Shown here piece after piece: positions 2,122-17,912 of a stretch of DNA of 32,000 nucleotides. The position numbers were made by a program, and so were the translations under genes. Position 1 is the first letter of the stretch. Each line of letters starts with the position of its first letter. Source of the DNA: Candidatus Nanoarchaeia archaeon (GTDB taxonomy: Archaea > Nanobdellota > Nanobdellia > Woesearchaeales > JANQNC01); assembly GCA_028279745.1 (NCBI GenBank), contig JANQNC010000001.1, positions 1 through 32,000 on the forward strand, in the 5' to 3' direction. The notes below the pieces were generated by a model, which had not been told where the DNA came from, did not search any database, and saw nothing but the letters and a program-made list of their open reading frames with translations.

Positions 2122-5100
2122 TCAGGTTATTATCCTGATTATGTCTGGGTTTTCAGTGTCTATAAACGTTATGGGTCTAGGCTCATCGTCGTGATCAACT
2201 ACTTTGCCGCTCTTATCGATCTCTTTCTGGTTGAATATCCATTCGATGGTTGCAAGAGGACCTCCAATCTCAACAATAAAGTAACCTGTCTGTGAATCTG
2301 AATTGTTGATATTATCATATACATAAACAGTGTAGGAGATGTTTCCTATATCTGTTGTGGTATAACTGTAGAGGTATATGTCTCCAGCTGAAAGGAAGAG
2401 ATCATAAAGAGTGTCGCTAATGTTAACTTTAACACTGTTTACTTCGATATTATCGGTGACATTTGCAGTAATGTTGATTATCTTGCCTACCACAAGAGGA
2501 TCTGGGGAGGCATCGATCCAGTTGACCGTGGGATCTGTGAAGTCTACGTTGAGGAGCCTTGAGTCGACACCGGTATTGTTTTCATAGTCGGTACACTCAA
2601 CCTTCCATAATAAGTCAACACCTTCAGTTATGTTGGTCACATTAAACATGATCTCAGTACCATCAGTTGGCGCAGCAGTATCGGAAGCTTTTAACACATC
2701 ATCAATATAGAGCTCGCAGCTTATGTTTTCATAAGCCTCGTCATAAACCTCAAACACAAAACTTACATTGCCGTCGTCATCCCAGTAATGATTGGCAGGA
2801 CTCACAAGCTTAACAGAAGGCCTTGTCAAAGTGAAAAATACGATGTTGGATGTAGCATTATTATAGCCTTCATCAGTTGCATTAACAACAAACTTGTAAG
2901 TTGTAAGATTGCCGATCAAATCAAGATGAGATGTAAGAGTGATTTCAGTTTCAATACTGCTGTTTAATGAACCCTCATTCCCTACAGAATGAAGGGTGTC
3001 ATTCACAAAATAAACATAGACGGTATAGTTTAATGTGCTGTAATCTCTAGAATTCCCAAACAGCTTAAGCTTGGGATGAACTGCAGAACCAAAAGTGCCG
3101 TTAAGAGGGGAATTGATGCTAACTGTCAAAGGTAATGCTGTGTCAATAGTGAAACTGATTGAATCCTGTCCAATCTCGCCCTCAGAATTATTTGCATAGA
3201 CAGTTAAATTGTTTAAGCCTTCGACACCTGTGATGTTTGGTTCTGAACTGCAATTAAAGGTAATATTTGAAGCACCATTAAACTCATACCAGCAACTCTC
3301 AGAAACTTCACTTGCATTAACCCTGATGAAGTGGCTTTCGTTATTATACGTAAAACTCTCAAGAGGATTTGTGATAACTACAACAGGAACGGGGATACCA
3401 ATAGTTAAATTGATAGCAGGATCGTAATAAGAAGAATAATTATCTGAGCCGTCAAGATCAATTGCGTTACACTTAATATCTACATCTGCCTGGTCAGGCA
3501 AAGCTGAAATGTTCCATGAGAAAGTAGACCCATTGGTGTGATTTCCTATAACTTTCCACTTTCTGCCATTTATATCAACCCATATAGAAGTATAGTTTAT
3601 CTCATCAATAGTTGAAGCATCAAAATAATCCATCAAACGCCCTCTTACCCTTAAGTCTTGGTTTGAAGATGATTGCCATGCACTAATGACTGAAGGGTTG
3701 GTGGTCGTAAGAGTAAAATTATGGTCAGTGTTGTCTAATGCTGTTCCTGTGTAAGTAGAAGGAAGATCAAAAGAGCCAATACTTGTCCAACCAACACCAT
3801 CATATATCTCTAGTTCAAGATCAGGATCCGAAGTTGTCTGTTGTACGGATGCTTCAGGATTGAAAGAATCAACCTCGACAGTAACTGAGATGTTAGTGAC
3901 GTGGTCAAAATTTCCATCAAGATCATTATAAGTTGTCCAAGAAGAGTCTTGGTCAGATGAAGTTGCGGTGGCAGGTGAGAATGCAGCTGCAACAAGCGCT
4001 TGCCGGTTGTTGTTTGAGTGGGACCAAGAGACAGAAAAAGAACCAGCAGTCGTGTCAATGTCATCGCCTCCTGATCCTGTAGAAGAAGTTGCAGCGCCAT
4101 CAATCTCATATCTCTCTGTGCCTGCACTGTAGGTATAATCGCCAGAATTACCATCTCCAACAGCACTCATGACCCAGCTGTTGTCTTCTGTTGTGGTAAG
4201 TGAACATGATATCGGCTGGCCGGCATTTGAGGTGCAGCTATCAACAAGGCCATCAGCCTGGTCAACATTAGCGTAAGAACTTACACCGACCAAAACATTT
4301 CTTGTGGGTGTTGCAGAAACATCAACTGCAACAGTGTAGGATCCTGAGGGGGGCAAGTCCTCTTCTAGTAAGTAGTATAATGCAGTGTATTGAGAGTAAC
4401 CTGCACCTGCTCGCGCCCAATCTGCTTGTGTTAGGGTCTGACCGTTGTAGGTTACACTGTTAACAACTTTATCGGCTAAAGAATCCTCAAAAGTGATTCC
4501 CACAACTAACAATCTATTATTTCCACCTCCTATCGTGTGAGAAAAACTTCTATCACCACTTCCTTGATCTGTTGTAGTTGCATCATGAGATATTGAACCG
4601 CCAGATCCTGTTACGGAATTACTGACATCTGTTGCATCAGTTTCTGTTGTAGAGTTAAGCAAAGAAGCGTTGATCACATAAGTGATAGTGTCTCCATCAG
4701 GGTCTGTACTTCCAGAACAGTTTAGCTCAACATCATTGAAGAAAGTATCATTACAGTTTCCATCATTGCAGGTTATAGATGTGGGTGTTGTAGGCTGAGT
4801 GTTTTCAACATATGAAACAGTCAAAGGAGCATAGTCTATTGCAAGGAATGCATCTCCGCTTCCATCTTGAGTGAAATCAACTTCATATCTGACTCTTATC
4901 CAGTTTGTTGAGTTAACATAGTTAGCTAAAGTTCCCGTTGCGTTATAACTTTCATGATACATAGCTTCATTTGAGTAAACAGGGATGTTTCCTATGTCGA
5001 CCCAGGAAGTTGTCACCCAGTCATAAACCTCGACATTCTGGTCTCCGTCAACAATCTTTTCGTGAGGGTCATCATTGTCACATAAGTCTTGAGATGCATC

Positions 5101-5940
5101 AGACTCTCCTGAGTGACAGTAATCAATCTCAAACTCAAGATTAGTTATATCAGAAGGATCTATGCTTAAAGAGCTTATATCATAATAGAGAGTGATGTAG
5201 GATAGAGCATTACCTGACCCAGAACCTTCTCCTGCAATAAAGTAATAGTTTGATCCAGGAGTTCCTGTTTGAGGACCATTATAAGTTTGTGTTTGGACAT
5301 AACTGCCTCCTTCTTCATCGTTGCCTTCAACGTCATTGATGTAACCTGCATCAGGAGTGCCTGCGGAGGGGGAGCCTTGAGCAAAACCGGGGTCGTCTGG
5401 AGTCAATATGAAAGTAAATTCTTCACCAGGTGTTAAAGGTTTTAAGAAGATCCAGTCACCAAAACAAGTCTGAGAAGAATAGTTCCAATCTTTACACTTG
5501 TATAATGTTGTGCCTTTGGCAGTAACTGTAACATTTGCGGATTCAAATTCTAATGATGTGGGATCAATTGCAAAAACATCGATGAAAGCGCCTTCAACAT
5601 TTTCTTTAGGGACATCTGAAATTCTTAACTTGATCTCAGAACTATTAACTTCTAATTTGTTAAATTCAATCTTCTCAACAGGTAAATCGTCTAATTCTAG
5701 TTCTATGTCATAAGTTCCTGGTTCAACATTTCCAATCTCGATCTTTTCAATGCTTCGTATCTTAAACTCTTCGCCTGCTGGCTCCAGATCCTCATAACTA
5801 GCAGAGCCAGCACTACTTCCCTCACTAAAGTCGTCCAGTAAAGAAGTGTCAATGTTGTCAAAGTTGATCTCTTCACTTTCAGAACAACCTACAAGAAGGA
5901 AGCACACTATTATAGCTAGTAAAAAGAAAGCATCTCTCAT
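2122..5940 (-). CDS. Large secreted/lipid-anchored surface protein (~1272 aa), sequon-rich, with repeated Ig-like beta-sandwich modules
   Basis: ORF track gives 2122..5970. I prefer ATG 5940 (MRDAFFLLAIIVCFLLVGC/SESEE), which gives a signal peptide with lipobox-like LVGC and an ATGA overlap with the upstream wHTH stop. Many N-x-S/T sequons and a DPDGD motif (GSTDPDGDTITY). The C-terminal half has recurring modules such as VSPANHYWDDDGNVSFVFEVYDEAYENISCELYIDDV...FNVTNITEGVDLLWKVECTDYENNTGVDS. No C-terminal TM. Confidence 0.85.
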   Translation of the reverse strand: MRDAFFLLAIIVCFLLVGCSESEEINFDNIDTSLLDDFSEGSSAGSASYEDLEPAGEEFKIRSIEKIEIGNVEPGTYDIELELDDLPVEKIEFNKLEVNSSEIKLRISDVPKENVEGAFIDVFAIDPTSLEFESANVTVTAKGTTLYKCKDWNYSSQTCFGDWIFLKPLTPGEEFTFILTPDDPGFAQGSPSAGTPDAGYINDVEGNDEEGGSYVQTQTYNGPQTGTPGSNYYFIAGEGSGSGNALSYITLYYDISSLSIDPSDITNLEFEIDYCHSGESDASQDLCDNDDPHEKIVDGDQNVEVYDWVTTSWVDIGNIPVYSNEAMYHESYNATGTLANYVNSTNWIRVRYEVDFTQDGSGDAFLAIDYAPLTVSYVENTQPTTPTSITCNDGNCNDTFFNDVELNCSGSTDPDGDTITYVINASLLNSTTETDATDVSNSVTGSGGSISHDATTTDQGSGDRSFSHTIGGGNNRLLVVGITFEDSLADKVVNSVTYNGQTLTQADWARAGAGYSQYTALYYLLEEDLPPSGSYTVAVDVSATPTRNVLVGVSSYANVDQADGLVDSCTSNAGQPISCSLTTTEDNSWVMSAVGDGNSGDYTYSAGTERYEIDGAATSSTGSGGDDIDTTAGSFSVSWSHSNNNRQALVAAAFSPATATSSDQDSSWTTYNDLDGNFDHVTNISVTVEVDSFNPEASVQQTTSDPDLELEIYDGVGWTSIGSFDLPSTYTGTALDNTDHNFTLTTTNPSVISAWQSSSNQDLRVRGRLMDYFDASTIDEINYTSIWVDINGRKWKVIGNHTNGSTFSWNISALPDQADVDIKCNAIDLDGSDNYSSYYDPAINLTIGIPVPVVVITNPLESFTYNNESHFIRVNASEVSESCWYEFNGASNITFNCSSEPNITGVEGLNNLTVYANNSEGEIGQDSISFTIDTALPLTVSINSPLNGTFGSAVHPKLKLFGNSRDYSTLNYTVYVYFVNDTLHSVGNEGSLNSSIETEITLTSHLDLIGNLTTYKFVVNATDEGYNNATSNIVFFTLTRPSVKLVSPANHYWDDDGNVSFVFEVYDEAYENISCELYIDDVLKASDTAAPTDGTEIMFNVTNITEGVDLLWKVECTDYENNTGVDSRLLNVDFTDPTVNWIDASPDPLVVGKIINITANVTDNIEVNSVKVNISDTLYDLFLSAGDIYLYSYTTTDIGNISYTVYVYDNINNSDSQTGYFIVEIGGPLATIEWIFNQKEIDKSGKVVDHDDEPRPITFIDTENPDIIRIIT

Positions 5941-6161
5941 CTGAAAACACCTGCTCTCCACCATATCCATGCGCCCTTGCCTGAACCAACAGGTTTACCT
6001 TTTATTAAACCTTCGCCTCTTAGGTTGTTCAATCTGTAAAGAACTTTAACTCTGGAAACATTTTTCAGTTTAGTTTCAACCTCTTTAGTCTCAAGAGGTT
6101 CTTCTGCACCAGTAAGGATGTCAATGATCTTTCTGCTAACAGCGTCGTTTATGTACATCAT
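5937..6161 (-). CDS. Small winged-helix-turn-helix DNA-binding protein (74 aa)
   Basis: MMYINDAVSRKIIDILTGAEEPLETKEVETKLKNVSRVKVLYRLNNLRGEGLIKGKPVGSGKGAWIWW fits the helix / recognition helix / beta-wing pattern of MarR/ArsR-like wHTH proteins. A TATA box ends 20 nt upstream of the ATG. The stop is coupled to the downstream giant gene. Confidence 0.7.
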   Translation of the reverse strand: MMYINDAVSRKIIDILTGAEEPLETKEVETKLKNVSRVKVLYRLNNLRGEGLIKGKPVGSGKGAWIWWRAGVFR

Positions 6162-6679: not shown

Positions 6680-7414
6680 ATGAAGAAGATGAGGAGGAAT
6701 ATGAAAATACTGCATCATAAAATGGAACAAAAATTCAAATTCAAAATTGGAAAATTAGGCTCACTCTTCCAAAAGGAAGACCAGGTGCCCCCTGAGATTA
6801 ATTCTCAAAACGCCACCCCCAATCCAGTGGTAGAGGGGGGCACCATCCCTATCAAAAGGAGGACAAGAATGAAAAGAAATACTGCGAACCATAAAAGAGG
6901 TGGTAGATGGATAATAGCAGTAGTGATGACTTTGTTGGTGATGAATGTAGCAATGGCTTTGGAAGTCAAAACTTTTGATGAAAATTTGTTCGAGATAGAT
7001 GCATTCGAAACAGGAGATATGGTTGTGATACTGGTAGATGCGGAAACTCAACCGCTGATCACAATATCGGAATCAGAAGTAGTCGACAAAGAGATGGAGC
7101 TCATAGATGAAGGAAAGTACAGAGGAATGATACAAGTTAGTGAAGAAGGAGAATACGAAATCAAAGTTACAGAAGGAGATAATGTTGATACAACAGAGAT
7201 AGTTGTTGTGAACGACTTAGGGTTTGAATGGGAGGAAGTAGAAGCACAACTTGAAGAAGAAAAAGAAGAAAGAAAACAAATCATAGAGGAAGCAAAAAAA
7301 CAGGCAATCGAAAGATTGAGTGAAGAACAAGAAAAATCATTTTGGCAAAAGATAAGCAACTTCCTGAAAGAGATGTGGGAATGGATGTTCAAAGGAGAAA
7401 AGAATGAAGAGTAA
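6680..7414 (+). CDS. Signal-anchored or secreted small protein: beta-rich N-domain plus acidic coiled-coil C-terminus
   Basis: This is the maximal ORF. Alternative starts are ATG 6722 (directly after a micro-ORF stop) and ATG 6869 (AGGAGG at 6857-6862, 6-nt spacer), which gives MKRNTANHKRGGRWIIAVVMTLLVMNVAMA/LEVK. The hydrophobic segment ends in AxA. The C-terminus is EEVEAQLEEEKEERKQIIEEAKKQAIERLSEEQEKSFWQKISNFLKEMWEWMF. It overlaps the next gene by 11 nt. Confidence 0.7.
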   Translation: MKKMRRNMKILHHKMEQKFKFKIGKLGSLFQKEDQVPPEINSQNATPNPVVEGGTIPIKRRTRMKRNTANHKRGGRWIIAVVMTLLVMNVAMALEVKTFDENLFEIDAFETGDMVVILVDAETQPLITISESEVVDKEMELIDEGKYRGMIQVSEEGEYEIKVTEGDNVDTTEIVVVNDLGFEWEEVEAQLEEEKEERKQIIEEAKKQAIERLSEEQEKSFWQKISNFLKEMWEWMFKGEKNEE

Positions 7415-10400
7415 AACAATAGGCATAATCGGAATAATGATCTTGCTAGTTTCACTATTCGTGATAACCGCAACAGCACTAGAAGTAAAACAAGGAACAT
7501 CTGAAGATCTGACAATATTCTTACAAAACTCAAGTTCGGGAGCACCACTGACAGGAATAACCTGTGTGGCAGATGTATGGAACCCATCAAATACAAAGAT
7601 AGTGGATGATGGGGCGCTAACAGAACTAGATGAAGGATTCTACTACTATCCAACAAACGCGGGCTGGACAGACTTGGGAGATTACAGAGTTATGGTCAAA
7701 TGCACGATCTCAGGAGAGAATGTCTTTAGCGCAATGATGTTCGAGATGGTAGCAACAACAATAGAAGAATACCTAGTGGAAATAAACGAAACAACATCGC
7801 AAACTTACGATTACTTACAAAACACACTTTACCCTGCAGTTGATACTTTGGAAGCAAGTGTTGCTGATATAGATAATAACCAAACACAGATCTGGAATAA
7901 GTTGGTTACAGTCGAGTCAGATATTGCGACAAACTACAACGAAATAATGGATGCTCAGATGATGATCGGAGAGATCAACACATCCACTATGGCAGAGCTG
8001 CAAGACCACAGAAATAGATTGGTTGAGATAAACACAACAACCTGGGAGATGCTGGACAACATAACAGACACAGTAAATCCAAAACTGGACCAGTTACAGA
8101 CTGATATTGACTTGATCAAAGGATACACAGATACAATAGAAACAGAACTAAATTGTGGAGCAGTATCAGCAGGAGACGTATGTTCAAAACTTAACGACAT
8201 AATAAGTTACACCGACACAGTTGAATCAGGAATAACAAGCATACAGTCAAACATTGATGACCTTAACGCAACAGTTGACACAAGATTTGATGCAGTAGAC
8301 ACATCACTATCTAACATATACGCGGATACTCAGTCAATCCTAACCTCGGGAGTGCATCTAAGCAGTGAGGATAATGCAACACTATACAACATACTAGGAC
8401 TAGTTACGGATTCAAACACAACAATCTATGATGTCAAGAATTACATGGAAGGAACAGTAACAACATACCTAGCAGAAATCAACACAACAACACAAGAGAT
8501 AAACGCAACTGTAAATGATATCTACAACTATCTACAAAACACAGTCTATCCAGCAGTTGATACTTTGGAAGCAAGCGTTGCTGACATAGATAATAACCAA
8601 ACACAGATCTGGAATAAGTTAGTTACAGTTGAGTCAGATATTGCGACAAACTACAACGAAATAATGGATGCACAAACATTGATGACTAGTGTGAATGACA
8701 CAGTCATGACTGAATTGATAGACCATAGAAACAGACTGATAGAAATTAACACAACAACCTGGGCATCATTAATCAACATAACACTAGAGGTAGTGCCAAA
8801 GATAGATGCAGTTCAAGCAGATACTGATGACTTACAGACAGAGCTAGCACTAGTCAAGAATTATGTAGACAGTCTAGAAGATGGACAATCTGATCTGTAC
8901 AATAACTTAACAGTAATCCAAGGATACACAGACACACTAGAGACAGGGATAACCGGATTAGAAAATGACATCTCAACACTGAACAACACCGTAAGTGGAA
9001 GGTTAGATACAATTGACACTTCATTATCTGATATCTACACAGATACACAATCAGTCATTAACTCAGGAGTTAAACTAGATGCAATAACAAACGTAACACT
9101 GTATGATGTGTTATCAAAAGTAACTGATACAAATGCAACAATCGCAGAAGTCAAGACCTACTTAGAAGGACCAGTAATGACATTACTGGCTGAGATAAAC
9201 ACAACAACACACGGAACATATGACTATCTGGTTAATACTGTCTACCCAGCAATTGATACGCTAGAAACAAGCATGGCAGAAGTTCAAAACAATAACTCAC
9301 AAATCTGGACAAAAGTAGTAGAGATACAAAATAATGTGACCAATAACTTTGATGAGATATTGGCTGTGCAGAATACACTACAAGAAGTTAACACAACAGT
9401 GATGGTAGAACTAGTTGACCACAGACAAAGACTGATAGAACTGAACACAACAACTTGGGATATCTACATCAACATAACACATGAAGTAGTGCCAAAGATA
9501 GATGCAGTTCAAGCAGATACTGATGATTTACAAACAGAGTTAGCATTAGTGAAAGATTATGTTGATACATTGGAATTGGGTCAGCAGACAATAATCGGAA
9601 ACATCTCTGCAGTGCAAGTAGTTGTCGATGCAATCGATGTAAACACAACAGAACTTGAAGGACTTATATCGGGACTTGATGATATGCTTGACTGTGATGG
9701 AAGTGGAGACGGAACAGTATGTCTATACCTAGAAGCAATCAACACAACAGTTGGAATAATAGATGACAATACAGATAGTCTGGAAGCAGGACAAACAACA
9801 ATAACAAACTATGTAGATACACTTGAAGGTGGACAAACAACAATACAAAACTACGTAGACACATTAGAAGACGAACTAAACTGTGTAAGTCCGGCGGCAA
9901 GCGATGTATGTTCACAACTGAGTACAGTACAATCTTACGTGGACAGTTTAGAATCTGGCCAACAAGCTATAATCGGAAACATCACAGCAAGTGAAACAAC
10001 AATCACCTCACAACTAACAACAATAGAGAACTATGTTGACACAGTGGAAACACAGCTAGTAGGATTATCTTCAGACATAAGCGACTGGGAAGCAAATGCA
10101 ACAAGCAGATTTGATGCAATAGATGCTTCATTAACAAACGTGTATGCAGACACACAACAGATAGTCAACTCGGGAGTGAAACTAGATGCAATTACAAACG
10201 TAACTCTATATGATGTGTTATCAAAAGTAACTGACGCAAACGCAACAATAGCAGACGTAAAAACATACATGGAAGGAAGCTTGACAACACTAATCTTGGA
10301 CGTGAATGCAAGCATAACAGAAACGATAGAGTTTGAGAGTAATTTAACAAGAAACCAGATAATGGATATGATACAAAGTAATGTAACGTCTATATTGTCA

Positions 10401-13400
10401 GCAATAAGCACCAACGGAGCAGACATAAACTCAATATTGACCAAATGGGGAACATACAACGCATCAGGAATAGTAGATGAGATAACTGTAAACAGAAATG
10501 AAATAACAACAATGCAGTCATGGTTGGATGCATTTAATACAACAGAACAGGCAAGACATAATGAAAGCATGGATCTAGGACAAGAGATATTGAACTGGTT
10601 AGGAATCTACAATGGAACAGAGGCACAGAGACACAACATAACACAATCATTACTGAATGAGCTAGTTGCAAACATGACAGACTCAATCAACTTGTCAAAC
10701 GAAATAATCGCACAGTTAGGAATTAATGCGTCAGCAACAACAGTCTACGATGAACTTGTGGCATTAAGCAACCAAAATAACCAGATAATCACTTTGACAA
10801 ATGAGATCAATCTAACAACACACAACATAGACACTAACTTGATAGAGCTAAACACAACAATCTCACTGATCAAGACAGACACGACAGACTTACTAGGTAA
10901 ATGGGGCACATATAACTCATCATCAATAATGGATCAGCTAACATTGATGGACGGTAAACTAGACATAATCTCAACTTCCTCATTAAACAACACTGATGTG
11001 CTTAACGCAGTTGCACAGATGGAATCATTGCTAAATGAAACCCGAGCAGAAATCGGATTTAATGGAACAGGAATAACAGCATACGAGTACTTAGTGAATG
11101 TGGATTCATTCCTGACAGAGATGAATACAACAATAATCAACAAGATAGAATTTGAAGGAAATTTAACAAGAAACTACATCGTTGATGTGATCAACTCAAA
11201 CGTATCAACATTAATTAGCGAAATAAATTCCAATGAAGGAAAACTAGACTCGCTGTTGGCTAAGTGGGGAAGTACCAATGCAAGCTACATACTAGAAAAC
11301 ATTACAGAAAACAGAGACAAGCTGATCACGATAGAAGGATGGCTAGATGCATTTAATGTTACAGAGCAAGCAAGACATAATGAAAGCATGGATCTAGGAC
11401 AAGACATACTGAACTGGTTAGGAATCTACAATGGAACTGAAGCACAGAGACATAACCTAACACAAGGGTTACTGAATGACTTGCTTACAGAGATAGATGC
11501 AAATGAGAACTTGTCTAACATAATCATATCAAGAATCGGCTACAACGGAACTGTGCCAACAACACTGTATGAGGACATACAGACAATCATAACACAAAAT
11601 ACAGATATAACAATCCTCGTCGAAGAAATCAACATAACCTCCCACACTACATTAGAGATAGTGAATGAGACTATGGTGCCTAAATTAGATGCAATGCACA
11701 CAACAACACAAGACATACTAAGCAGATGGGACACTTACAACGCAAGCCAGTTATGGGAGAAGACAGGAGTCACAGAAACAAAAGTAGACACGATGCAGGC
11801 ATGGTTGGATTCATTCAACACATCAGAACAGACTAAGTATGGTAGTGTGATTGCAGAACTAGATGCAGTAGATGCACTAATTGGAGATGTGAGAAATGAT
11901 ATTGGGGTTAATGGATCAGGACTTTCAGTATATGATAATCTAGTTACAATTGACAATAAGATAGTTGATATGAACACAACACTGTACATCAAGATGGAAG
12001 TGGAGAGTAATTTAACAAGACAGGAACTTAAAGACATGATAAACGCGAATGTGACATCATTACTTACCGAGATAAATGAAAATGAAGGAAAACTTGACAC
12101 GCTAAGCACAGACTTAGGAAATGTATCACTAGTTTCATTGATGGCGAACGTAACAGAGGCAAGAAACCAACTAACAGGATTAGAGAATTGGCTAGATGAG
12201 TTCAATGCAACTGAACAAAACAGAACAAATGATGTGATAGACTTCCTGAACAACATAATACTGCCAGAGATAGATATGACTGAAGAATTGACAAATGACT
12301 TGATAACACAAGTAGGATTTAATGGAAGCAATGAAACACTGCTAGACAAACTTTTAGACATAAGACTTCAACAAGATTATGTTGCAAACGCAACACAGGT
12401 ATTGATCACAGTTGGAAACAACTTGACAACACTCTTGTCAGAAAACTCACAAAAGATGGACCTGCTAAAAACATCAGTGGATCTGTCAACAGTATACATC
12501 TCAGCAGTTTACACAAAATGGGGAGCATACAACATGCAAGACATATACAACAAACTTAACCTGATAGAGTTGAAAGTTGACATATTAGACTTTTCAAACA
12601 TATCAACACTGATGAACAGGTTTGACGACATAGAGCTTGCAATAAACCAAACAAGAGCAGAACTAGGATTCAATGGAACAAGCATGTCAGCATTCGAATC
12701 ACTGCTGAATTTACAGACACAGATGAATGCAGTAAATAGTTCGTTACAAGTTGCAATAGAGACACAAGGGAATCTAACAAGAACACAAATTGAAGACAAA
12801 ATCACAAATGCGACAGCGACAATAGTGAATGAAGTTAACGTGAATGAGAACCACTTGTACGACATACTAGACAAATGGGGCAACGTAACAGCAGAAGACA
12901 TAATCACAAACGTAACAGACGTAAGAAATGGCATTACAGCAATAGAAGCATGGTTGATAGCATTCAACACAACAGAACAAGACAGGCATGATAACGAAAC
13001 AGGACTAGTACAATCTGTACTGGATTGGCTAAACGTATTCGGAACAACAGAAGCAGAAAGACACGATGCGATAATGGGCAACATAACAGAAACGATAACT
13101 TTGATCAACACAACACAAGGAATAGCAAATGAGATCATAGCACAGATAGGATACAACATAACAAACAGAACTGTCTATGAGGACATACAACAATTGCTAG
13201 CAAACACCGTAAACATAACAGGCGGAACAGGAAGCATAACCGGAATCAACTATGTCATACTAGAAAACGGAACAAACATGATAGCATTACCGATGCAGCC
13301 AACAAACACCTCAATCGAATCAGTGATGGGTGTGTTGGCAGATAACTATTACAGAGTGGATTGGTACAACGACACAAGCAGTTCATGGCAGACGTACAAT

Positions 13401-13496
13401 CCACAAGATCCATTTGGAAACGACCTATACACGATGGAAACAGGAAAAGCATACAAGATATGGGTACAGGAGGACGACGTACTTTTCATAAGCTAA
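7404..13496 (+). CDS. Giant (2030 aa) secreted protein, predicted alpha-helical/coiled-coil and heavily N-glycosylated; putative fibrous surface protein
   Basis: AAGGAG sits upstream of ATG 7404. Signal peptide: MKSKTIGIIGIMILLVSLFVITATA/LEVK. The protein comprises a ~95-aa beta-rich N-domain and then ~1800 aa with heptad-like hydrophobic spacing. It is built from two families of long internal repeats. My hand count finds roughly 90 N-x-S/T sequons. An ~85-aa beta-rich C-terminal domain follows. Confidence 0.9.
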   Translation: MKSKTIGIIGIMILLVSLFVITATALEVKQGTSEDLTIFLQNSSSGAPLTGITCVADVWNPSNTKIVDDGALTELDEGFYYYPTNAGWTDLGDYRVMVKCTISGENVFSAMMFEMVATTIEEYLVEINETTSQTYDYLQNTLYPAVDTLEASVADIDNNQTQIWNKLVTVESDIATNYNEIMDAQMMIGEINTSTMAELQDHRNRLVEINTTTWEMLDNITDTVNPKLDQLQTDIDLIKGYTDTIETELNCGAVSAGDVCSKLNDIISYTDTVESGITSIQSNIDDLNATVDTRFDAVDTSLSNIYADTQSILTSGVHLSSEDNATLYNILGLVTDSNTTIYDVKNYMEGTVTTYLAEINTTTQEINATVNDIYNYLQNTVYPAVDTLEASVADIDNNQTQIWNKLVTVESDIATNYNEIMDAQTLMTSVNDTVMTELIDHRNRLIEINTTTWASLINITLEVVPKIDAVQADTDDLQTELALVKNYVDSLEDGQSDLYNNLTVIQGYTDTLETGITGLENDISTLNNTVSGRLDTIDTSLSDIYTDTQSVINSGVKLDAITNVTLYDVLSKVTDTNATIAEVKTYLEGPVMTLLAEINTTTHGTYDYLVNTVYPAIDTLETSMAEVQNNNSQIWTKVVEIQNNVTNNFDEILAVQNTLQEVNTTVMVELVDHRQRLIELNTTTWDIYINITHEVVPKIDAVQADTDDLQTELALVKDYVDTLELGQQTIIGNISAVQVVVDAIDVNTTELEGLISGLDDMLDCDGSGDGTVCLYLEAINTTVGIIDDNTDSLEAGQTTITNYVDTLEGGQTTIQNYVDTLEDELNCVSPAASDVCSQLSTVQSYVDSLESGQQAIIGNITASETTITSQLTTIENYVDTVETQLVGLSSDISDWEANATSRFDAIDASLTNVYADTQQIVNSGVKLDAITNVTLYDVLSKVTDANATIADVKTYMEGSLTTLILDVNASITETIEFESNLTRNQIMDMIQSNVTSILSAISTNGADINSILTKWGTYNASGIVDEITVNRNEITTMQSWLDAFNTTEQARHNESMDLGQEILNWLGIYNGTEAQRHNITQSLLNELVANMTDSINLSNEIIAQLGINASATTVYDELVALSNQNNQIITLTNEINLTTHNIDTNLIELNTTISLIKTDTTDLLGKWGTYNSSSIMDQLTLMDGKLDIISTSSLNNTDVLNAVAQMESLLNETRAEIGFNGTGITAYEYLVNVDSFLTEMNTTIINKIEFEGNLTRNYIVDVINSNVSTLISEINSNEGKLDSLLAKWGSTNASYILENITENRDKLITIEGWLDAFNVTEQARHNESMDLGQDILNWLGIYNGTEAQRHNLTQGLLNDLLTEIDANENLSNIIISRIGYNGTVPTTLYEDIQTIITQNTDITILVEEINITSHTTLEIVNETMVPKLDAMHTTTQDILSRWDTYNASQLWEKTGVTETKVDTMQAWLDSFNTSEQTKYGSVIAELDAVDALIGDVRNDIGVNGSGLSVYDNLVTIDNKIVDMNTTLYIKMEVESNLTRQELKDMINANVTSLLTEINENEGKLDTLSTDLGNVSLVSLMANVTEARNQLTGLENWLDEFNATEQNRTNDVIDFLNNIILPEIDMTEELTNDLITQVGFNGSNETLLDKLLDIRLQQDYVANATQVLITVGNNLTTLLSENSQKMDLLKTSVDLSTVYISAVYTKWGAYNMQDIYNKLNLIELKVDILDFSNISTLMNRFDDIELAINQTRAELGFNGTSMSAFESLLNLQTQMNAVNSSLQVAIETQGNLTRTQIEDKITNATATIVNEVNVNENHLYDILDKWGNVTAEDIITNVTDVRNGITAIEAWLIAFNTTEQDRHDNETGLVQSVLDWLNVFGTTEAERHDAIMGNITETITLINTTQGIANEIIAQIGYNITNRTVYEDIQQLLANTVNITGGTGSITGINYVILENGTNMIALPMQPTNTSIESVMGVLADNYYRVDWYNDTSSSWQTYNPQDPFGNDLYTMETGKAYKIWVQEDDVLFIS
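7836..7954 (+). repeat. 119-bp near-identical direct repeat, copy 1 (pairs with 8553..8671)
   Basis: Hand alignment gives 115/119 identical. The four differences (T/C, T/C, G/A, C/T) all fall on third codon positions and are synonymous. Both copies encode AVDTLEASVADIDNNQTQIWNKLVTVESDIATNYNEIMDA. Confidence 0.9.
8553..8671 (+). repeat. 119-bp near-identical direct repeat, copy 2 (pairs with 7836..7954)
   Basis: Same alignment as copy 1. The offset is 717 nt (239 codons), in frame. Confidence 0.9.
10320..13200 (+). repeat. Intragenic tandem repeat family B (four units of ~254-283 aa)
   Basis: The anchor motif (E/Q)(S/G)NLTR recurs at 10341, 11160, 12009 and 12771 (offsets 819, 849 and 762 nt, all in frame). 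The best-conserved block, WLDAFN(T/V)TEQARHNESMDLGQ(E/D)ILNWLGIYNGTEAQRHN, lies at 10521-10660 and 11340-11479. Hand alignment of that block gives about 124/140 nt identical. Units 3 and 4 are more diverged. Confidence 0.85.
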
Positions 13497-13497
13497 G

Positions 13498-15402
13498 ATG
13501 AATAACAAAAAACTAATCTGGATGTTTGTATTCATGGTTTTACTAGTGTCAACTGTAGCATTAGCAAAGCAACCAAATCCAGAAATCTACTGGGGAAGAG
13601 TATACCTAGATGGAAGCTATGCTCCTAACGGAGGAGTACTAACGGTAGAAACAGCATCAGGTGAGCTATTGATAAATGAAACACTGCCAAAATCAGGAGG
13701 ACATCCAGGAAGTTACAGTATAAGCGTACAGTTTGATGACTTGTTAACTAATGCAACAGATGAAGGAGCAGAGAATCTAGAACAGTTAGTCTGGAAACTA
13801 GATGGAATAGAAGTTGTAACTCCATTGAATGACACAGCAGTCATAGGGGAGACAAACAACGAGTTTAATGTAACTGCAGTAACAATACCGCAAGTGACTA
13901 TAGGGAATTTGTTCTACACCTCAATCACAGTAGGACAGGTAATAAATGACACATTATCATTGGATAATACCGGAGCAGGAGATGGAGACGTAACAATAGC
14001 ACTTAACTATAATGCAAGTGCGTATGATGTGACAACAAATCTGCCATTGACACCAACACTTTCCGCAAATAGTTCAACAAATGAAAGAATAGAAATAATA
14101 CCAAACGCATGCGGAAGTTATAACTTAAGCTTACAGACAGATGTCTTGGACACAGCAGGAAGACTAAGAACAACAAAATCACAAGACATAACATTTGATT
14201 ACACAGGACCTAATCTTGTTGTGACTAACATAGATTCAGGAACGTTGACAGTGAATGAAGTAGCACAGCTAAGCGTAAAAGTACAAAATAGTGGGAATGA
14301 AGATATAACAGGATTTAACACAAGCGTAAAGATAGATAATGTAGAGATAGGCAACACTTATGCTAACTACACTTTAACAGAGGATGAGAACTTATCAATA
14401 GGAACACTCTGGACTCCAACATCTGCAGGAACATACAACATAACTGCGGAGATAACAACAACAGAGCTAGAATGCACATCAACAGATAACATATTCAGTA
14501 AAATAGTAACAGTACAAGCAGCAACATCAGGTGGTGGAGGATCTGGTGGATCAGGAGGATCTGGTGGGGGAAGTTCATCAGGAGGAAGCTGCACACCAGA
14601 ATGGGAATGCACAGAATGGGGCGAATGCGGATACTTCAGCGGTGTAAGAACAAGAACCTGTGAAGACAAAAAAGAATGTGGTACACTGTTTAACAAACCA
14701 GAAGAAGAGGAACAGTGTAGAGGGGTTCCTGCATGCACAGATGGAATGCTAAACGGACAAGAGGAAGATATAGACTGTGGAGGATTATGTGAAGCATGCC
14801 CTATACAAACAGCAGAAGAAGAAAACAAACCAAAAACTAACCTGATTACGGGTGATGCAGTTGATCAAGAAGAGAAAGGAATGCAAAGAATACTAGACTT
14901 CCCATCACTACTGCTGGCATTTATGACATTAGTGTTCCTAATGGGATATGTGTTCATCTACAAAAATATGGACGCACAATCATATGAACAATACAGCGTA
15001 AAGATATTAGATGATCCAGGAACAAAGAAACAATATGCATATGTGCCATTTGAGTACATGATGCAGGCAGCAGACATAATAGATAACGTACATAGTTCAA
15101 AGCTGTCACAAAAAGCACTAAAAGAACAATTTGAAAAACAAAAATACAGTCCGGTTGTAGCAAGACTAGCATTGAAAGCAGTCAGATCAACAGGTGTGGT
15201 GATGAAGAATGAGGCAAGAATAAGAAAAGAACTAGCTGCTTTAGAGATAGGTAAAGAAGGATATGACTACATAAGCTATACAACATTATCAAAATCAGTA
15301 AAACTGATGGCAGAACTATTCAAAGTAATAAAAGACGATAAAGAAAGAAAAAAGATAGTGAAATTAGCTGTTGCAGGACTGGGCAGCGTAAAAACAGAAT
15401 AA
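13498..15402 (+). CDS. Type I membrane surface protein: signal peptide, beta-rich and CARDB-like domains, Gly/Ser linker, two Cys-rich modules, one TM and a ~145-aa cytoplasmic tail
   Basis: The start lies 1 nt after the giant gene's stop. Signal peptide: MNNKKLIWMFVFMVLLVSTVALA/KQ. CARDB-like segment: LVVTNIDSGTLTVNEVAQLSVKVQNSGNEDITGFNTSVKIDNVEIG...TSAGTYNITAEI. Linker: SGGGGSGGSGGSGGGSSSGGS. Cys-rich region: CTPEWECTEWGECGYFSGVRTRTCEDKKECG...C, then CTDGMLNGQEEDIDCGGLCEAC. TM: FPSLLLAFMTLVFLMGYVFIY. Confidence 0.9.
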   Translation: MNNKKLIWMFVFMVLLVSTVALAKQPNPEIYWGRVYLDGSYAPNGGVLTVETASGELLINETLPKSGGHPGSYSISVQFDDLLTNATDEGAENLEQLVWKLDGIEVVTPLNDTAVIGETNNEFNVTAVTIPQVTIGNLFYTSITVGQVINDTLSLDNTGAGDGDVTIALNYNASAYDVTTNLPLTPTLSANSSTNERIEIIPNACGSYNLSLQTDVLDTAGRLRTTKSQDITFDYTGPNLVVTNIDSGTLTVNEVAQLSVKVQNSGNEDITGFNTSVKIDNVEIGNTYANYTLTEDENLSIGTLWTPTSAGTYNITAEITTTELECTSTDNIFSKIVTVQAATSGGGGSGGSGGSGGGSSSGGSCTPEWECTEWGECGYFSGVRTRTCEDKKECGTLFNKPEEEEQCRGVPACTDGMLNGQEEDIDCGGLCEACPIQTAEEENKPKTNLITGDAVDQEEKGMQRILDFPSLLLAFMTLVFLMGYVFIYKNMDAQSYEQYSVKILDDPGTKKQYAYVPFEYMMQAADIIDNVHSSKLSQKALKEQFEKQKYSPVVARLALKAVRSTGVVMKNEARIRKELAALEIGKEGYDYISYTTLSKSVKLMAELFKVIKDDKERKKIVKLAVAGLGSVKTE

Positions 15403-15452: not shown

Positions 15453-17912
15453 ATGGCAACCAGACTTAAAGCTAGGACTACAAAAACAGAAGATAAAGAG
15501 ACAAAGCAAATCTTAGCACACGCTAAAAAAAGACTAAAACAAGGGTACAGTGAAGATTCAGTAAAGATCTGGCTGAAAAGAGAAAATTATCCTACCAAAA
15601 AAATAAATTCTGCCCTCAAAGAAGTTCTAAAAGAATCAAAAACAAAAGAAAAGAAACAGAAAAGAGAATCACTTAGTCTACACAGGAAACGAGCTGAACA
15701 ACTAGTCAAACAGGAAGCTCAAAAGAAAGAAAGACAGAAGAGAGCAAAAGAATTACAGAAAAAGATCTTGGCGCAAAAAAAGAAAGATGAAAGAGAGAGG
15801 ATAAAAAGAGCAGCATCGCTTAAAAAACAAGCTGAAGAAAGAAGACAAAAAGCAGCAGAAGCTAAGAAAAAAGCAGAAAAAGAAAAAGCAATACTAGAAC
15901 TGGAGAGAAAGAAGAAAGCAGCAGAAAGAAAAAAACAAGCAGCTAAAAAGAAAAAAGAGCTAGAAGAAATAAAACAAAAAAGACTAGAAAAGCACAGATT
16001 AGTATTGGCTGAAAAAGCAGCAGAAGAAAAACTAAAACAAGGAATAGCAAGAAAAAAAGTCAAAAAAGCAAAACAGATGTGGAAAGAAGAAGAGGTAAAG
16101 AAACAACTCAAGAAAGAATCAAGAAGAAAAGCATTTGCAGCATCAATATCAAAAGAAAAAGCAGCTGAAGAAAAGAAAAAAGCAGATAAAGCGAAAAGAC
16201 TGAAAGAGTTTAAGGCCAGTAAGCAAAAAGCAGAACAAGAAAGAGCAAGAAAAGAATTAATGTTAGAGAAAAGATCCAAAGAGTTAGAGAAACAGAGACT
16301 GGTTGAAGAGAAAAAGAAAAAGCAAGAGTTATTGAAGAAAAGGAGAGAGGAGAAGAAGAGAAAAGAGCAGGAAAAGAAGAAAAAAGCAGCAGAGAAAAAG
16401 AAGTTACTGGCAGAAAAAGCAAAAAAGAAAACAGCAGAGAAAAAGAAAAAAGAGCAAGAGAGAAAAAAGAACGAAGCCGAAAAGAAAAGAGAACTTTCTA
16501 AAAGAGAAAAAGAAGAACAAGCAGCATTGAAAGAAAAGTTGTATAGGATAGAATCAGCAAGAAAGTTGTGGAAAGAGTCTGAAAAAGAGAAAACAGAACT
16601 GAAAACAAAAAGAAAACAAAAATTCTTAGAAACAAAAGCAGTTGAGGAAAAAGAAGAGAAAAAGAAACTAGCTGCTGAGAAGAGAAGAAAAGCAGCAAAG
16701 AAGAAGAGAGATGCTGAAAAGTTAGTAAAGCAAAGAGAAGAAGCAGAAAAAGCAAGAGCAGATCTAGAAAAACAAACCGCAAAAGAGAAACGGGCTAAGA
16801 AAGCAGAACAGAAAAAGATAGAAAAAGAAAGAGAACAAAGGATAGCTGAACAAGAGAAAGAAGATTTTGAAAAAGCAAAGAAAAAAGCGCAAGAGATACA
16901 AAAGAGAGACAGAGAACGAGCAAGAAGAGCTAAAAAAGCACAAAAACAAAGAGAGCAGACTATCAAAGACATCCAGGAAAGATTTACAAAAACTATGGAC
17001 TTAGTCCATAGAAGACTAAAAGCTGCAAAAGAGGAAGCAACAACCAAGAAACAGGAAAAAGCAGTAGATAAAGCACACGAAGAGATAGAGAAACTAGGAA
17101 AAGACTTTGGTAAACTAGAAGAAAAAGTAGAAGAAAAGATAGAGATCATAGAACCAGAAGAAGCTAAAGAGGAGAAGAAAAAAGAGGAAGTTGAAAAAGA
17201 GATCAAAGAAGAACCTCAAGAAACGGTAGTGGAAACAACCGCGGAGGTTGAAGATGAAAAAGAAGAACAAGAAGAACCAGAAGCAGAGTCAATAATCGAA
17301 GCAGTTGCTGACGAAAAACCAGAAGAAGAAAAAGCACCCGAAGAGATGACAAGAGAAGAAGTGCTTGATAAGAAAGAAGAACTAATCGGTCAAATAAAAT
17401 CATTCGAGAAAAAAGTAGTCAGTAGAGAAGAGAAAATAAAAGAAATCCTGAAAGATTCAGCATTAAAAGATCTAGAAAAAGAATTGGAAAAGAAACTACA
17501 AAAAATACAAAAAGGACTAAAAGAAGATATTAAAGAGATAAAAGAAGAAGTCAAAGACACTCAGAAACAATGGGTTTCTGGCGCCACTAAAGGTGGAGAA
17601 AAAGAAGAACAGAAGGAAGAATCAAAGGAAGAGAAAAAACAAGAAATTCCTGCGTCTGAAGAAAAAGAGCTGACAAAAGAAGAAAAACAGAAGGTAGTTG
17701 ATGAAGTGATGCAGAAATCAAAATCTTATTCTGAGAAAGTATGTGAGATAGTGAATAAATTTGAGTTTGTTGAATTAAGCGAGTTGGCAGACTTTATGGA
17801 TGTAGACAAAAAAACACTGCAAGAGTGGGCAGAACAAGAAGCAAAAGAAGGCAAAATAAAAATATTCAACGTCAAGAATGGAACTTACGAACTAAGAAAA
17901 AATCCAAACTAA
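15453..17912 (+). CDS. 819-aa Lys/Glu-rich protein (putative very long charged single alpha-helix) with small structured N- and C-terminal domains
   Basis: TTTATAAG (15408-15415) and GAGGT lie upstream. N-terminus: KKRLKQGYSEDSVKIWLKRENYPTKKINSALKEVL. About 600 aa of K/E/A/R low complexity follow. The C-terminus, VCEIVNKFEFVELSELADFMDVDKKTLQEWAEQEAKEGKIKIFNVKNGTYELRK, looks like a winged helix. No TM or signal peptide. Confidence 0.85.
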   Translation: MATRLKARTTKTEDKETKQILAHAKKRLKQGYSEDSVKIWLKRENYPTKKINSALKEVLKESKTKEKKQKRESLSLHRKRAEQLVKQEAQKKERQKRAKELQKKILAQKKKDERERIKRAASLKKQAEERRQKAAEAKKKAEKEKAILELERKKKAAERKKQAAKKKKELEEIKQKRLEKHRLVLAEKAAEEKLKQGIARKKVKKAKQMWKEEEVKKQLKKESRRKAFAASISKEKAAEEKKKADKAKRLKEFKASKQKAEQERARKELMLEKRSKELEKQRLVEEKKKKQELLKKRREEKKRKEQEKKKKAAEKKKLLAEKAKKKTAEKKKKEQERKKNEAEKKRELSKREKEEQAALKEKLYRIESARKLWKESEKEKTELKTKRKQKFLETKAVEEKEEKKKLAAEKRRKAAKKKRDAEKLVKQREEAEKARADLEKQTAKEKRAKKAEQKKIEKEREQRIAEQEKEDFEKAKKKAQEIQKRDRERARRAKKAQKQREQTIKDIQERFTKTMDLVHRRLKAAKEEATTKKQEKAVDKAHEEIEKLGKDFGKLEEKVEEKIEIIEPEEAKEEKKKEEVEKEIKEEPQETVVETTAEVEDEKEEQEEPEAESIIEAVADEKPEEEKAPEEMTREEVLDKKEELIGQIKSFEKKVVSREEKIKEILKDSALKDLEKELEKKLQKIQKGLKEDIKEIKEEVKDTQKQWVSGATKGGEKEEQKEESKEEKKQEIPASEEKELTKEEKQKVVDEVMQKSKSYSEKVCEIVNKFEFVELSELADFMDVDKKTLQEWAEQEAKEGKIKIFNVKNGTYELRKNPN

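Follow-up and report, generated by a model that had tools for sequence, protein, structure and literature searches.

A sequon-saturated 2030-residue repeat protein of a Candidatus Nanoarchaeia archaeon, a probable glycan-coated helical stalk of the cell envelope

The first 32,000 nucleotides of contig JANQNC010000001.1 from a Candidatus Nanoarchaeia archaeon (GenBank assembly GCA_028279745.1), referred to below as the window, contain a giant open reading frame (ORF) whose product is saturated with N-glycosylation sequons, which raises the question of what kind of object this product represents. The ORF covers positions 7404-13496 of the forward strand, starts with ATG, and encodes 2030 residues, as stated by a sequence-only reading of this DNA made before any database search. 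High proportions of Thr (13.0%), Leu (10.0%), Asn (9.8%), Ile (9.4%), and Asp (8.1%) characterize the giant protein, which contains only 18 Pro and 8 Cys residues and 4% Lys+Arg, and has an isoelectric point (pI) of ~4. It comprises, from the N-terminus, a signal peptide, a β domain, a helical A half (residues 119-960) made up of A units, a B half made up of B units, and a second β domain. We regard it as a representative of an uncharacterised family, a variant of the glycosylated coiled-coil surface stalk. It is probably, with some room for doubt, a secreted, glycan-coated, and elongated extracellular helical fiber or stalk of the archaeal envelope.

Sequons of the type N-x-S/T, with x being any residue except Pro, occur 94 times in the giant protein (72 NxT and 22 NxS). 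This corresponds to one sequon per 21.6 residues and agrees with the approximate manual count of the sequence-only reading (~90, one per 20-25 residues). Close to half of the Asn residues (47%) sit within a sequon, and the density reaches one sequon per 17 residues in the B half. The contexts quoted in that reading are all present, EINTTT in four copies, FNTTEQ, NGTEAQRHN, and NATxx[DE]VK in two copies each, and LNTTTW in a single copy. The suspected excess over composition is real: shuffling of the whole protein (n=5000) returns 38.5±5.4 sequons with a maximum of 63, which places the observed number at z=10.3, and shuffling within blocks of 40 residues yields the same excess. Control motifs remain at or below the composition level (37 for N-x-x-[ST], 38 for N-[ST], and 22 for [ST]-x-N), as compared with 95 for N-x-[ST]. 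Because the repeats are not independent of each other, the segments were tested one by one, with 2000 shuffles each. The B units harbor 12-17 sequons each where 3.5-7.2 are expected, and none of the 2000 shuffles reaches the observed number in any B unit. The excess is associated with P values of 0.0015-0.05 in the three complete A units and is marginal in the partial fourth one (P=0.07), while sequon enrichment is absent from the N- and C-terminal β domains in these per-segment shuffles.

The comparison with relatives indicates that these sequons are under selection. In the orthologue P0002, which is 63% identical to the giant protein, 81 of the 94 sequons are retained; their Asn is kept in 88% of the cases versus 64% for the other Asn residues, and the Ser/Thr at position +2 in 93% versus 64% for the other Ser/Thr residues. 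The orthologue P0003 displays the same trend. When 24 A units from 12 proteins are aligned, the sole invariant column is a sequon Asn (Asn41), with Asn10 being nearly invariant. The conserved positions within the repeat units anticipated from the sequence are indeed found: sequons recur at ~10 columns of the A unit (at least 40% of the copies) and, in at least half of the copies, at 13 alignment columns belonging to the B unit and at two columns of the C-terminal β domain.

Two known types of Asn-containing motifs can be ruled out as the source of this pattern. Asp or Glu occupies position -2 in only 29 of the 94 sequons, which dismisses the bacterial PglB-type sequon D/E-x-N-x-S/T. The N@d core layers of the I-N-T-T type encountered in trimeric autotransporter adhesins (TAAs) are dismissed as well, since adjacent N-[ST] pairs (38) are at the chance level. 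Relatives of the A unit provide another line of evidence. The proteins P0029-31, P0034, P0036, P0047, and P0033 are sequon-poor, still align to the A-unit profile, and keep its hydrophobic pattern intact. Sequon-rich relatives possess 11.1 sequons per A unit versus 2.4 in the sequon-poor ones, and eight A-unit columns carry a sequon in 44-75% of the units of the former versus 0-24% of the units of the latter. P0033 (1231 residues) exhibits the same architecture as the giant protein, with a signal peptide, A units, B units, and the C-terminal domain; it contains 24.6% Asp+Glu, and its 10 sequons compare with 9.1 expected. The helical fold thus appears independent of the sequons, because these relatives keep the pattern without them and P0033 has them at the chance level only. 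N-glycosylation by an archaeal oligosaccharyltransferase of the AglB type is favored over a purely structural motif on the basis of these comparisons, since the sequons are neither of the N@d nor of the PglB type and since relatives without sequons keep the fold. Occupancy of the sites by glycans is suggested indirectly, by the selective conservation of the sequons.

The structural alternative proposes that N-x-S/T serves as a helix motif, in polar core layers or as N-caps such as N-x-T-E, of an unglycosylated coiled coil. It can draw on the sequon Asn residues flanking the hydrophobic seam in the A half, and on the B-unit sequons located within the motif W-L-x-x-F-N-x-T-E-x-x-R-H, in which Glu, Arg, and His are invariant too and whose sequons persist in the sequon-poor P0033. 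However, it accounts neither for the enrichment of the exact spacing alone, in contrast to the three control motifs, nor for the preference for NxT over NxS (72:22). Moreover, the helical pattern is maintained in other lineages with only 0-24% of their units carrying a sequon at the columns concerned, and the neighboring β-rich secreted proteins are enriched in sequons too. We therefore consider this alternative very improbable. As for N-glycosylation, the existence of the same helical scaffold without sequons represents a natural experiment, in which the role of dense archaeal N-glycans is testable by comparison or by unit swapping. In P0033, acidic residues are found at the sequon positions of the giant protein. 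This looks like an exchange of glycans for charge between lineages; if a glycan coat has indeed been swapped for acidic residues in this very acidic lineage, a role of the glycans in solvation or against aggregation would be indicated.

The giant protein starts with a putative signal peptide, reaching a Kyte-Doolittle maximum of 2.73 within its first 50 residues, whereas no second transmembrane (TM)-like segment is detected by this measure in the rest of the protein (best value elsewhere 1.22). The motif A-L-E-[VI]-K-[QS]-G follows the hydrophobic stretch in 6/6 orthologues, and the cleavage site, placed by eye, would fall within it. The signal sequence and the lack of any further TM segment argue for an extracellular location, as do the genes around it: the adjoining secreted proteins (2122-5970 and 13498-15402) are enriched in sequons too, the latter with 12 sequons versus 6.6 expected, while cytoplasmic-looking ORFs contain only 0-3 sequons. 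The acidity of the giant protein does not reflect a halophilic host, an explanation ruled out by the pI of ~8-10 of the cytoplasmic-looking ORFs. The setting is archaeal, as indicated by DUF7504/KaiC-like matches in the window and by thermosome, diphthamide synthase, and wyosine (Taw1/Trm5) genes on the contigs of relatives. Scans for tRNA genes and Rfam families over the 32-kb window report no match.

Fragment-against-whole BLAST, phmmer, and DNA repeat analysis all agree on the module layout given in Table 1. The two families of long repeats flanked by β termini, as described from the sequence, are thus recovered at both the protein and the DNA level, the N-terminal domain being backed by AlphaFold and the C-terminal one being of low confidence. 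The A units are spaced by 232-244 residues according to protein boundaries and by 232 and 239 residues (696 and 717 nt) according to DNA repeats; the corresponding values for the B units are 273, 285, and 257 residues, and 273 and 283 residues (819 and 849 nt). The degenerate fourth A unit combines expanded 14-residue Y-x-D-T/S-L-E-x-G-Q repeats with the C-terminal half of an A unit, and B unit 3 is devoid of the second W-L-x-x-[FY]-N-x-T-E-x-x-R-H motif. No kinship between A and B units is demonstrable by hhalign (44% probability). The DNA copies share 65-89% identity, the highest value being reached by repeat D5 in A unit 2 when compared with its counterpart in unit 1 (89% over 161 nt). Since the copies are only 65-89% identical, an assembly collapse is unlikely and the repeats are old.

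Six of the eight cysteines form three C-x8-C loops located at equivalent points of the A units, Cys251/260 (nt 8154-8183), Cys764/773 (nt 9693-9722), and Cys827/836 (nt 9882-9911). A plain GQ-containing helix replaces the loop in some units and orthologues, and AlphaFold predicts a helix break only where the loop is present; these loops are probably disulfide-stapled bulges. Pro108 is shared by 90% or more of the A units, and most of them have a Tyr-Pro pair at columns 25-26 (for instance residues 226 and 143-144, respectively, of the giant protein). Being located inside helices predicted as continuous, these prolines could represent conserved kinks or hinges of the rod. The number of A units varies from 1 to 4 among orthologues, and the order of units varies too. 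In P0004 and P0006, A and B units are interleaved (A..B..A..B) and a second Ig-like domain lies in the middle of the helical region (residues ~517-589 and ~520-600, respectively), showing that the modules are shuffled as cassettes. The N-terminal β domain is conserved in P0002-P0006, with internal copies in P0004, P0006, P0008, and P0011-14, and the C-terminal β domain is conserved in P0002-P0006 and P0033.

Table 1. Modules of the giant protein and adjoining genes, in nucleotide positions of the window
Feature	Position	Strand	Remarks
1282-residue secreted β-rich protein	2122..5970	-	41 sequons vs 19.9±3.8 expected
Cassette partner 1, 244-residue single-TM protein	6680..7414	+	its last 11 nt overlap the giant ORF
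Putative signal peptide, residues 1-25	7404..7478	+	MKSK, hydrophobic stretch, then TATA; cut before LEVK
N-terminal β-sandwich (Ig-like) domain, residues 26-118	7479..7757	+	AlphaFold, 8 strands
A unit 1, residues 119-350	7758..8453	+	coiled-coil-type helix, C-x8-C loop and SGVHLS break
A unit 2, residues 351-594	8454..9185	+	holds most of the modeled 232-residue helix
A unit 3, residues 595-791	9186..9776	+	truncated; C-x8-C loop Cys764/Cys773
Degenerate fourth A unit, residues 792-961	9777..10286	+	14-residue repeats, C-x8-C loop
B unit 1, residues 962-1234	10287..11105	+	17 sequons
B unit 2, residues 1235-1519	11106..11960	+	16 sequons
B unit 3, residues 1520-1776	11961..12731	+	14 sequons
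B unit 4, truncated, residues 1777-1945	12732..13238	+	12 sequons
C-terminal β domain (~85 residues), residues 1946-2030, plus stop	13239..13496	+	low-confidence strands
Cassette partner 2, 634-residue type-I membrane protein, candidate anchor	13498..15402	+	starts 2 nt after the stop of the giant ORF

An AlphaFold2 monomer model of residues 27-600 (model 1), computed from a 15-row alignment, comprises an eight-stranded β sandwich and, after it, four helices of 130, 56, 232, and 40 residues (mean predicted local distance difference test score, pLDDT, 75.9; predicted TM-score, pTM, 0.32). The helices, with pLDDT values of ~70-88, are broken only at the C-x8-C loop and at SGVxL motifs, and the longest one spans protein residues 321-552, almost all within A unit 2. 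Given the pTM of 0.32, the arrangement of the helices relative to each other is undefined in this model. The N-terminal β domain has block pLDDT values mostly of 68-83, lower at both ends, and Foldseek reports weak matches with Ig-like folds, namely domains 4-5 of the S-layer protein Sap, FetP, and the BppU N-terminal domain. The matches returned by Foldseek for the helical part from the PDB and from the viral models of BFVD are generic long-helix matches and were left out of the classification. AlphaFold also places strands, at low confidence, in the C-terminal β domain.

Hydrophobic periodicity separates the two halves of the protein. The A half displays a spectral peak at 3.55 residues with a power of 2.58, versus a null maximum of ~1.7 over periods of 3.5-3.67, and autocorrelation peaks at lags 7, 11, 14, 18, 21, 25, and 28 (values of 0.20-0.27). 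The family-averaged profile of the A unit shows the 3-4 spacing over 222 columns, again with a period of 3.55. The lag-11 value of the A half (0.21) approaches that at lag 7 (0.23), and a peak at 3.67 is found only at the start of each A unit. The A half is thus a mix of heptads and hendecads, of the type usual for long and weakly supercoiled coiled coils. In the B half, the values at lags 7, 14, and 21 amount to 0.09-0.11, and the claim of a 3-4 spacing over most of the length, which stands for the A half, was therefore overstated. Long uninterrupted helices are present in model 1, and a coherent periodicity of 3.5-3.67 residues is restricted to the A half. Trp, Phe, Tyr, Glu, and Arg dominate the invariant residues of the B units, which also include Asn, Gly, Ile, Leu, and Thr. 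According to its low-confidence model, the B half is probably helical as well, and its features suggest that it forms bundles rather than a canonical coiled coil.

Taken together, these data lead us to propose the following organization, in which the oligomeric state, orientation, fiber formation, and biological role are inferred. After Sec-dependent secretion and cleavage of the signal peptide, the mature protein would consist of the Ig-like domain, ~1830 α-helical residues, and the small C-terminal β domain. With its continuous 3-4 hydrophobic seam, the A half (~840 residues) would most likely assemble, parallel and in register, into a homo-oligomeric coiled-coil rod, which at 0.1485 nm per residue would measure ~125 nm and would be interrupted only by the short, disulfide-stapled C-x8-C loops and by the SGVxL kinks. 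An in-register parallel oligomer accommodates most easily the variation in the number and order of units among orthologues. The B half (~985 residues) would contribute shorter helices with an aromatic core, in bundles or in a looser coil, adding at most ~146 nm if extended. AglB would glycosylate many of the 94 sequons while the chain emerges from the membrane, and since the helical region holds 90 of them, a dense and quasi-periodic glycan coat would result, with ~1 site per 3 nm of chain. This coat might keep the rod solvated, protease-resistant, and not self-sticking. The C-terminal or the N-terminal β domain may dock onto the 244-residue single-TM protein and the CARDB-containing type-I membrane protein encoded on either side, and the whole assembly could serve as a long spacer, stalk, or adhesion fiber of the envelope.

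Several observations weigh against this organization. In the A half, the sequon Asn residues point on average 76° away from the hydrophobic moment, versus 141° for the other Asn residues; as they are located beside the hydrophobic seam, usually next to a core hydrophobic residue, some sites may be partly buried in a higher-order bundle, hence unoccupied or structural. Neither aglB nor genes of the lipid-linked glycan pathway are found within the 32-kb window. The window also encodes secreted acidic proteins without any sequon excess, such as that at 22745-25573 (0 sequons versus 5.3 expected), indicating that heavy glycosylation is not general in the host secretome; the sequon saturation is specific to the cluster of the giant protein. 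The B half has neither a spectral peak nor a heptad periodicity, and the model of the B units and C-terminal domain (model 2) is of low confidence, with a pLDDT of 53 and helices of 16-64 residues. Against the PDB, model 1 best matches coiled coils of the antiparallel hairpin type (chemoreceptors, Rad50, and MukB), which suits a fold-back of the chain no less well than a parallel oligomer. The similarity to SlaB described below carries a large composition bias and is thus not to be taken as homology. Finally, the docking to the membrane proteins is deduced from synteny and translational coupling. The regularly glycan-decorated fiber of the sequence-only reading therefore holds as regards the excess and conservation of sequons and the helical prediction, while the B half lacks the heptad signal and the fiber itself is proposed. 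Beside the protein at 22745-25573, two other ORFs of the window, 21609-22655 and 26530-27513, look secreted and contain 0 sequons versus 2.4 expected and 3 versus 2.3, respectively. All three possess signal peptides and pI values of 4.05-4.35; the two shorter ones are paralogues of each other (37% identity, E=3e-70), and a large secreted protein comes after each of them.

The main rival is a monomeric helical rod folding back on itself into antiparallel hairpins or bundles, resembling the chemoreceptor or SMC arms or spectrin, which would be shorter and thicker. The antiparallel hairpins found among the best PDB matches (2ch7, 9a65, 7zr1, and 6h2x) are in line with it, the C-x8-C and SGVxL loops could be its turns, and the broad seam with paired adjacent hydrophobic columns suggests more than one partner helix. 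The B units, with their short helices (16-64 residues) and conserved aromatics, are bundle-like as well. Nevertheless, the break-to-break lengths do not pair, neither those modeled (130, 56, and 232 residues) nor those deduced from the Cys loops and SGVxL motifs (~204, 53, and 88 residues), and A unit 2 is essentially one 232-residue helix devoid of any internal turn. The gain, loss, and interleaving of units in orthologues would also break an intramolecular pairing, and a monomer prediction, here with a pTM of 0.32, is blind to intermolecular packing. We consider a fold-back rod doubtful, and retain the parallel oligomer as the working model of the A half.

Few archaeal envelopes are known to bear glycosylated coiled-coil stalks, examples being tetrabrachion and SlaB, the latter a membrane-anchored stalk protein of the Sulfolobales S-layer. 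Tetrabrachion has a C-terminal membrane anchor. This glycoprotein of Staphylothermus marinus forms a 70-nm parallel coiled-coil stalk, made of a right-handed four-helix undecad coil, with β-rich arms of ~24 nm and bound proteases (PMC5744192). The giant protein resembles it by its putative, very long glycosylated stalk, by the β structure at one end, and by the lag-11 signal of its A half. It differs by its mix of 7- and 11-residue periodicities (3.55), its β domains of ~90 residues, and its tandem units of 232-283 residues. No sequence similarity to the PDB fragment of the tetrabrachion stalk is detected. Proposed as the only functional analogue by the sequence-only reading, tetrabrachion remains valid as an analogy; the giant protein has no C-terminal anchor and no large arm (its N-terminal β domain has ~92 residues), and its overall period of 3.55 rather than 3.67 suggests that its register is not purely undecad. 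The coiled-coil stalk of SlaB is a trimer with a 132-residue helix that bears 6 of the 14 predicted N-glycosylation sites of this protein (PMC10903991). Like the giant protein, it is archaeal and secreted, and its N-terminal β-sandwich precedes a long, polar, sequon-bearing helix; its C-terminal TM topology is shared by many relatives of the A unit, not by the giant protein itself, which ends with the 85-residue β domain. SlaB further differs by the length of its helix, 132 residues versus ~1830 helical residues, by the absence of long repeats, and by its three β domains and C-terminal TM helix, the giant protein being anchorless with a single β domain at either terminus. The principle of such stalks would be extended in the giant protein, whose helical body exceeds the SlaB helix more than 10 times and is made of interchangeable modules of 232-283 residues, and whose sequons are more than twice as dense as those of SlaA, itself heavily glycosylated (figures for SlaA from PMC10903991). 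The repeat modules could serve as long and rigid scaffolds for glycan display.

Outside the archaeal stalks, TAAs such as SadA and EibD (2WPR, 2WPQ, and 2XZR) share modular, polar, Asn/Thr-rich stalks, small β domains, and a variable number of modules with the giant protein, and TAA stalks return weak profile matches (E values of 3.5e-5 to 5e-4). In contrast, they come from Gram-negative bacteria, are not N-glycosylated, and contain N@d layers with N-T pairs, whereas N-[ST] pairs are at chance in the giant protein. TAAs are anchored by a C-terminal β-barrel, and no Pfam match for a TAA anchor domain is found in the giant protein. The SPEARE proteins of Nanohaloarchaeota and other DPANN archaea possess ~75 Ig-like domains, a TM segment, and a VirB4/TraG-like ATPase (PMC10266531). 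They are very large, acidic (pI ~4), Sec-secreted proteins of small-genome archaea as well, and are thought to mediate cell-cell contact (PMC10266531). They differ from the giant protein, which is almost entirely α-helical and is devoid of enzymatic or TM domains. DUF7310 (PF23991, a coiled-coil region) is the only Pfam family found to touch the giant protein, in its Y-x-D-T-L-E-x-G-Q region, with 25 bits for a gathering cut-off of 40 over fewer than 50 residues (18.5-22.4 bits for single units) and precomputed or faint matches in orthologues. The giant protein belongs to none of tetrabrachion, SlaB, the TAAs, and DUF7310, from each of which it departs by at least one of the features tested. 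SlaB-type stalks and the C-terminally anchored relatives described below appear to be closer analogues than tetrabrachion.

These analogies bring in another rival, according to which the giant protein is the stalk or canopy of a regular S-layer of the tetrabrachion or SlaA/SlaB type, with the neighboring β-rich proteins as lattice partners, and not a sparsely distributed adhesion fiber. The cluster of sequon-rich, secreted β proteins with a membrane-anchored partner would suit such a lattice, as would the SlaB-like C-terminal TM topology of relatives, the weak profile similarity to SlaB, and the heavy N-glycosylation typical of archaeal S-layer proteins (PMC10903991, PMC5744192). However, a rod of at least 125 nm would imply an implausibly deep pseudo-periplasm, the tetrabrachion stalk measuring 70 nm (PMC5744192), and a freely varying number of repeats is unexpected in a lattice of fixed geometry. 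The family is also rare, with 12 loci in 241 million metagenome records and none in species-representative genomes. We rate an S-layer stalk as unlikely.

The rarity of the family emerges from searches in public data, in which six full-length orthologues (31-63% identity) were found. The A-unit profile run against 1.84 billion representatives retrieves 21 proteins below 1e-30, 178 below 1e-10, and 2385 below 1e-3. The core motif YLQNT[VIL]YP accounts for the 12 metagenomic loci mentioned above; its extended form YLQNT[VIL]YPA is absent from a set of one genome per GTDB species, and the core motif and a second one, AVD[TI]LE..., are absent from 2.9 million viral contigs (IMG/VR). The B unit and the C-terminal domain are essentially limited to the orthologue group: the B-unit profile retrieves two additional proteins, and the C-terminal domain profile, run against 5.8 billion proteins, retrieves only fragments that apparently belong to the same family. 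No family reaches the threshold in Pfam, NCBIfam, and PHROGs, be it with the whole protein or with single modules, and both β domains are without Pfam match. Sub-threshold Pfam noise comes from SMC, Baculo_PEP_C, DUF1664, and DUF7310, the matches of the last three lying mostly in the degenerate fourth A unit and in the part of A unit 3 next to it. These searches reveal no strong homology to any non-fibrous family, so that none of the outcomes named as refuting in the sequence-only reading (such homology, a lack of sequon enrichment, or non-helical predictions) has occurred.

Searches of PDB sequences with the B-unit and C-terminal domain profiles report no match. The A-unit profile returns weak ones (E values of 3e-6 to 1e-3) with many polar trimeric coiled coils, among which coronavirus HR1, 8qox_B, TAA stalks, and reovirus sigma-1, as well as with designed coiled coils and chemoreceptor hairpins. 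The best natural match is 8qox_B, SlaB from Sulfolobus acidocaldarius (E=4.3e-6, 28.6 bits, bias 15.1), which is not found by the single-sequence search against the PDB. A TM-like segment occurs in the last 60 residues of P0007, P0008, P0010, and 22 of 45 further A-unit relatives, and the inspected termini of these TM-bearing relatives include a signal peptide and, past the TM segment, a basic tail. The A module may thus be regarded as a stalk module of membrane-anchored surface proteins, and in the subfamily of the giant protein, the C-terminal β domain takes the place of the TM anchor found in about half of the sampled A-unit relatives.

A viral origin was also considered, the giant protein being then a tail-fiber-like receptor-binding protein encoded by a virus or mobile element integrated in the genome. 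Foldseek against BFVD reports tail-fiber and BppU-like matches, with a β domain followed by a coiled coil, and the weak profile matches extend to reovirus sigma-1 and class-I fusion proteins. The structural matches, however, are generic for long helices, the motif scan finds no relative among the 2.9 million viral contigs, and PHROGs returns a single, sub-significant match (E=1e-4) with a family of no known function. Domain scans of the window find no integrase, capsid, or terminase gene, and the genes surrounding the giant protein lie beside housekeeping-type genes in several genomes. This origin is extremely improbable.

The gene of the giant protein belongs to a conserved cassette. The order small protein, giant protein, membrane protein is found in five contexts, the window and the loci L001/L002, L003, L017, and L018, with giant-protein orthologues of 63%, 41%, 32%, and 31% identity, and the stops and starts of the cassette genes overlap or are adjacent. 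Homology of the flanking proteins was compared for L001 and L003 only and amounts to 22-61% identity. Cassette partner 1 is a single-TM protein with a small β domain, an acidic helix, and an amphipathic C-terminal end rich in Trp and Phe; it shares 51% identity with its L001 counterpart and 22% (E=4e-6) with that of L003, while short ORFs of L017 and L018 are matched by position alone. A paralogous relationship between its β domain and the N-terminal domain of the giant protein is unsupported (BLASTP E=0.023 over 16 residues). Cassette partner 2 bears a signal peptide, β domains including CARDB (31.6 bits for a Pfam cut-off of 22.7), a Gly/Ser linker, a Cys-rich module, a TM segment, and a cytoplasmic tail of ~150 residues, and is 61% and 34% identical to its counterparts in L001 and L003, respectively. 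A gene occupies the same downstream position in L017, with a cut product, and in L018, where it encodes CARDB and SepF domains. The cassette supplies candidate anchoring partners for the giant protein and, in some lineages, a membrane protein with a SepF domain. Upstream of the giant gene, the β-rich protein at 2122-5970 returns sub-threshold matches with Big_7 (20.4 bits) and GH114_assoc. In L003 and L017, the giant gene is preceded by genes for proteins of 1285-2579 residues with weak or partial Big_7 matches, and in L002 by a 3304-residue ORF; these large ORFs are possible equivalents of 2122-5970. A radical-SAM gene directly follows the membrane protein in L003 and L018.

SepF is a membrane anchor of FtsZ. 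A cytoplasmic SepF domain is identified at the end of the cassette membrane protein of L018 (5951-8494; 39.3 bits for a cut-off of 27) and, just below this cut-off, of that of L003 (15811-18309; 26.1 bits). The protein at 13498-15402 and its L001 counterpart share the preceding tail, with the motif ..DYISY.., and are devoid of the SepF domain. A far-reaching extrapolation would be a trans-envelope apparatus, in which a parallel "bottle-brush" fiber of at least 125 nm, with N-glycans at fixed intervals, sits through its C-terminal β domain on the co-translated CARDB protein and is linked by SepF (in L018 and L003) to the FtsZ-anchoring division machinery. We consider such an apparatus quite improbable; if it existed, the link between the fiber and SepF could serve to mark division sites or partner cells, or to tether them.

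The window contains other genes of interest. Between the cassette and the radical-SAM gene of the window, ORF 15453-17912 encodes an 819-residue protein without Pfam match, containing 32.5% Lys+Arg and 23.6% Asp+Glu (pI 9.7), with an AT skew of 0.5-0.7 on its coding strand. At the left end of the window, a HAMP-domain membrane protein (63-1262), in which no kinase or methyl-accepting chemotaxis protein output domain is detected, precedes a KaiC/ArlH-like ATPase (1488-2120; DUF7504, 56.5 bits). The 281-residue protein encoded at 19435-20280 has a Laminin_G_3/ConA-like lectin domain (100 bits) between a signal peptide and a hydrophobic C-terminal segment. Among the distant A-unit relatives, P0008 and P0012 have Laminin_G_3 or 3keto-disac_hyd, the latter taken here to be ConA-like, recorded within the same polypeptide as their A units.

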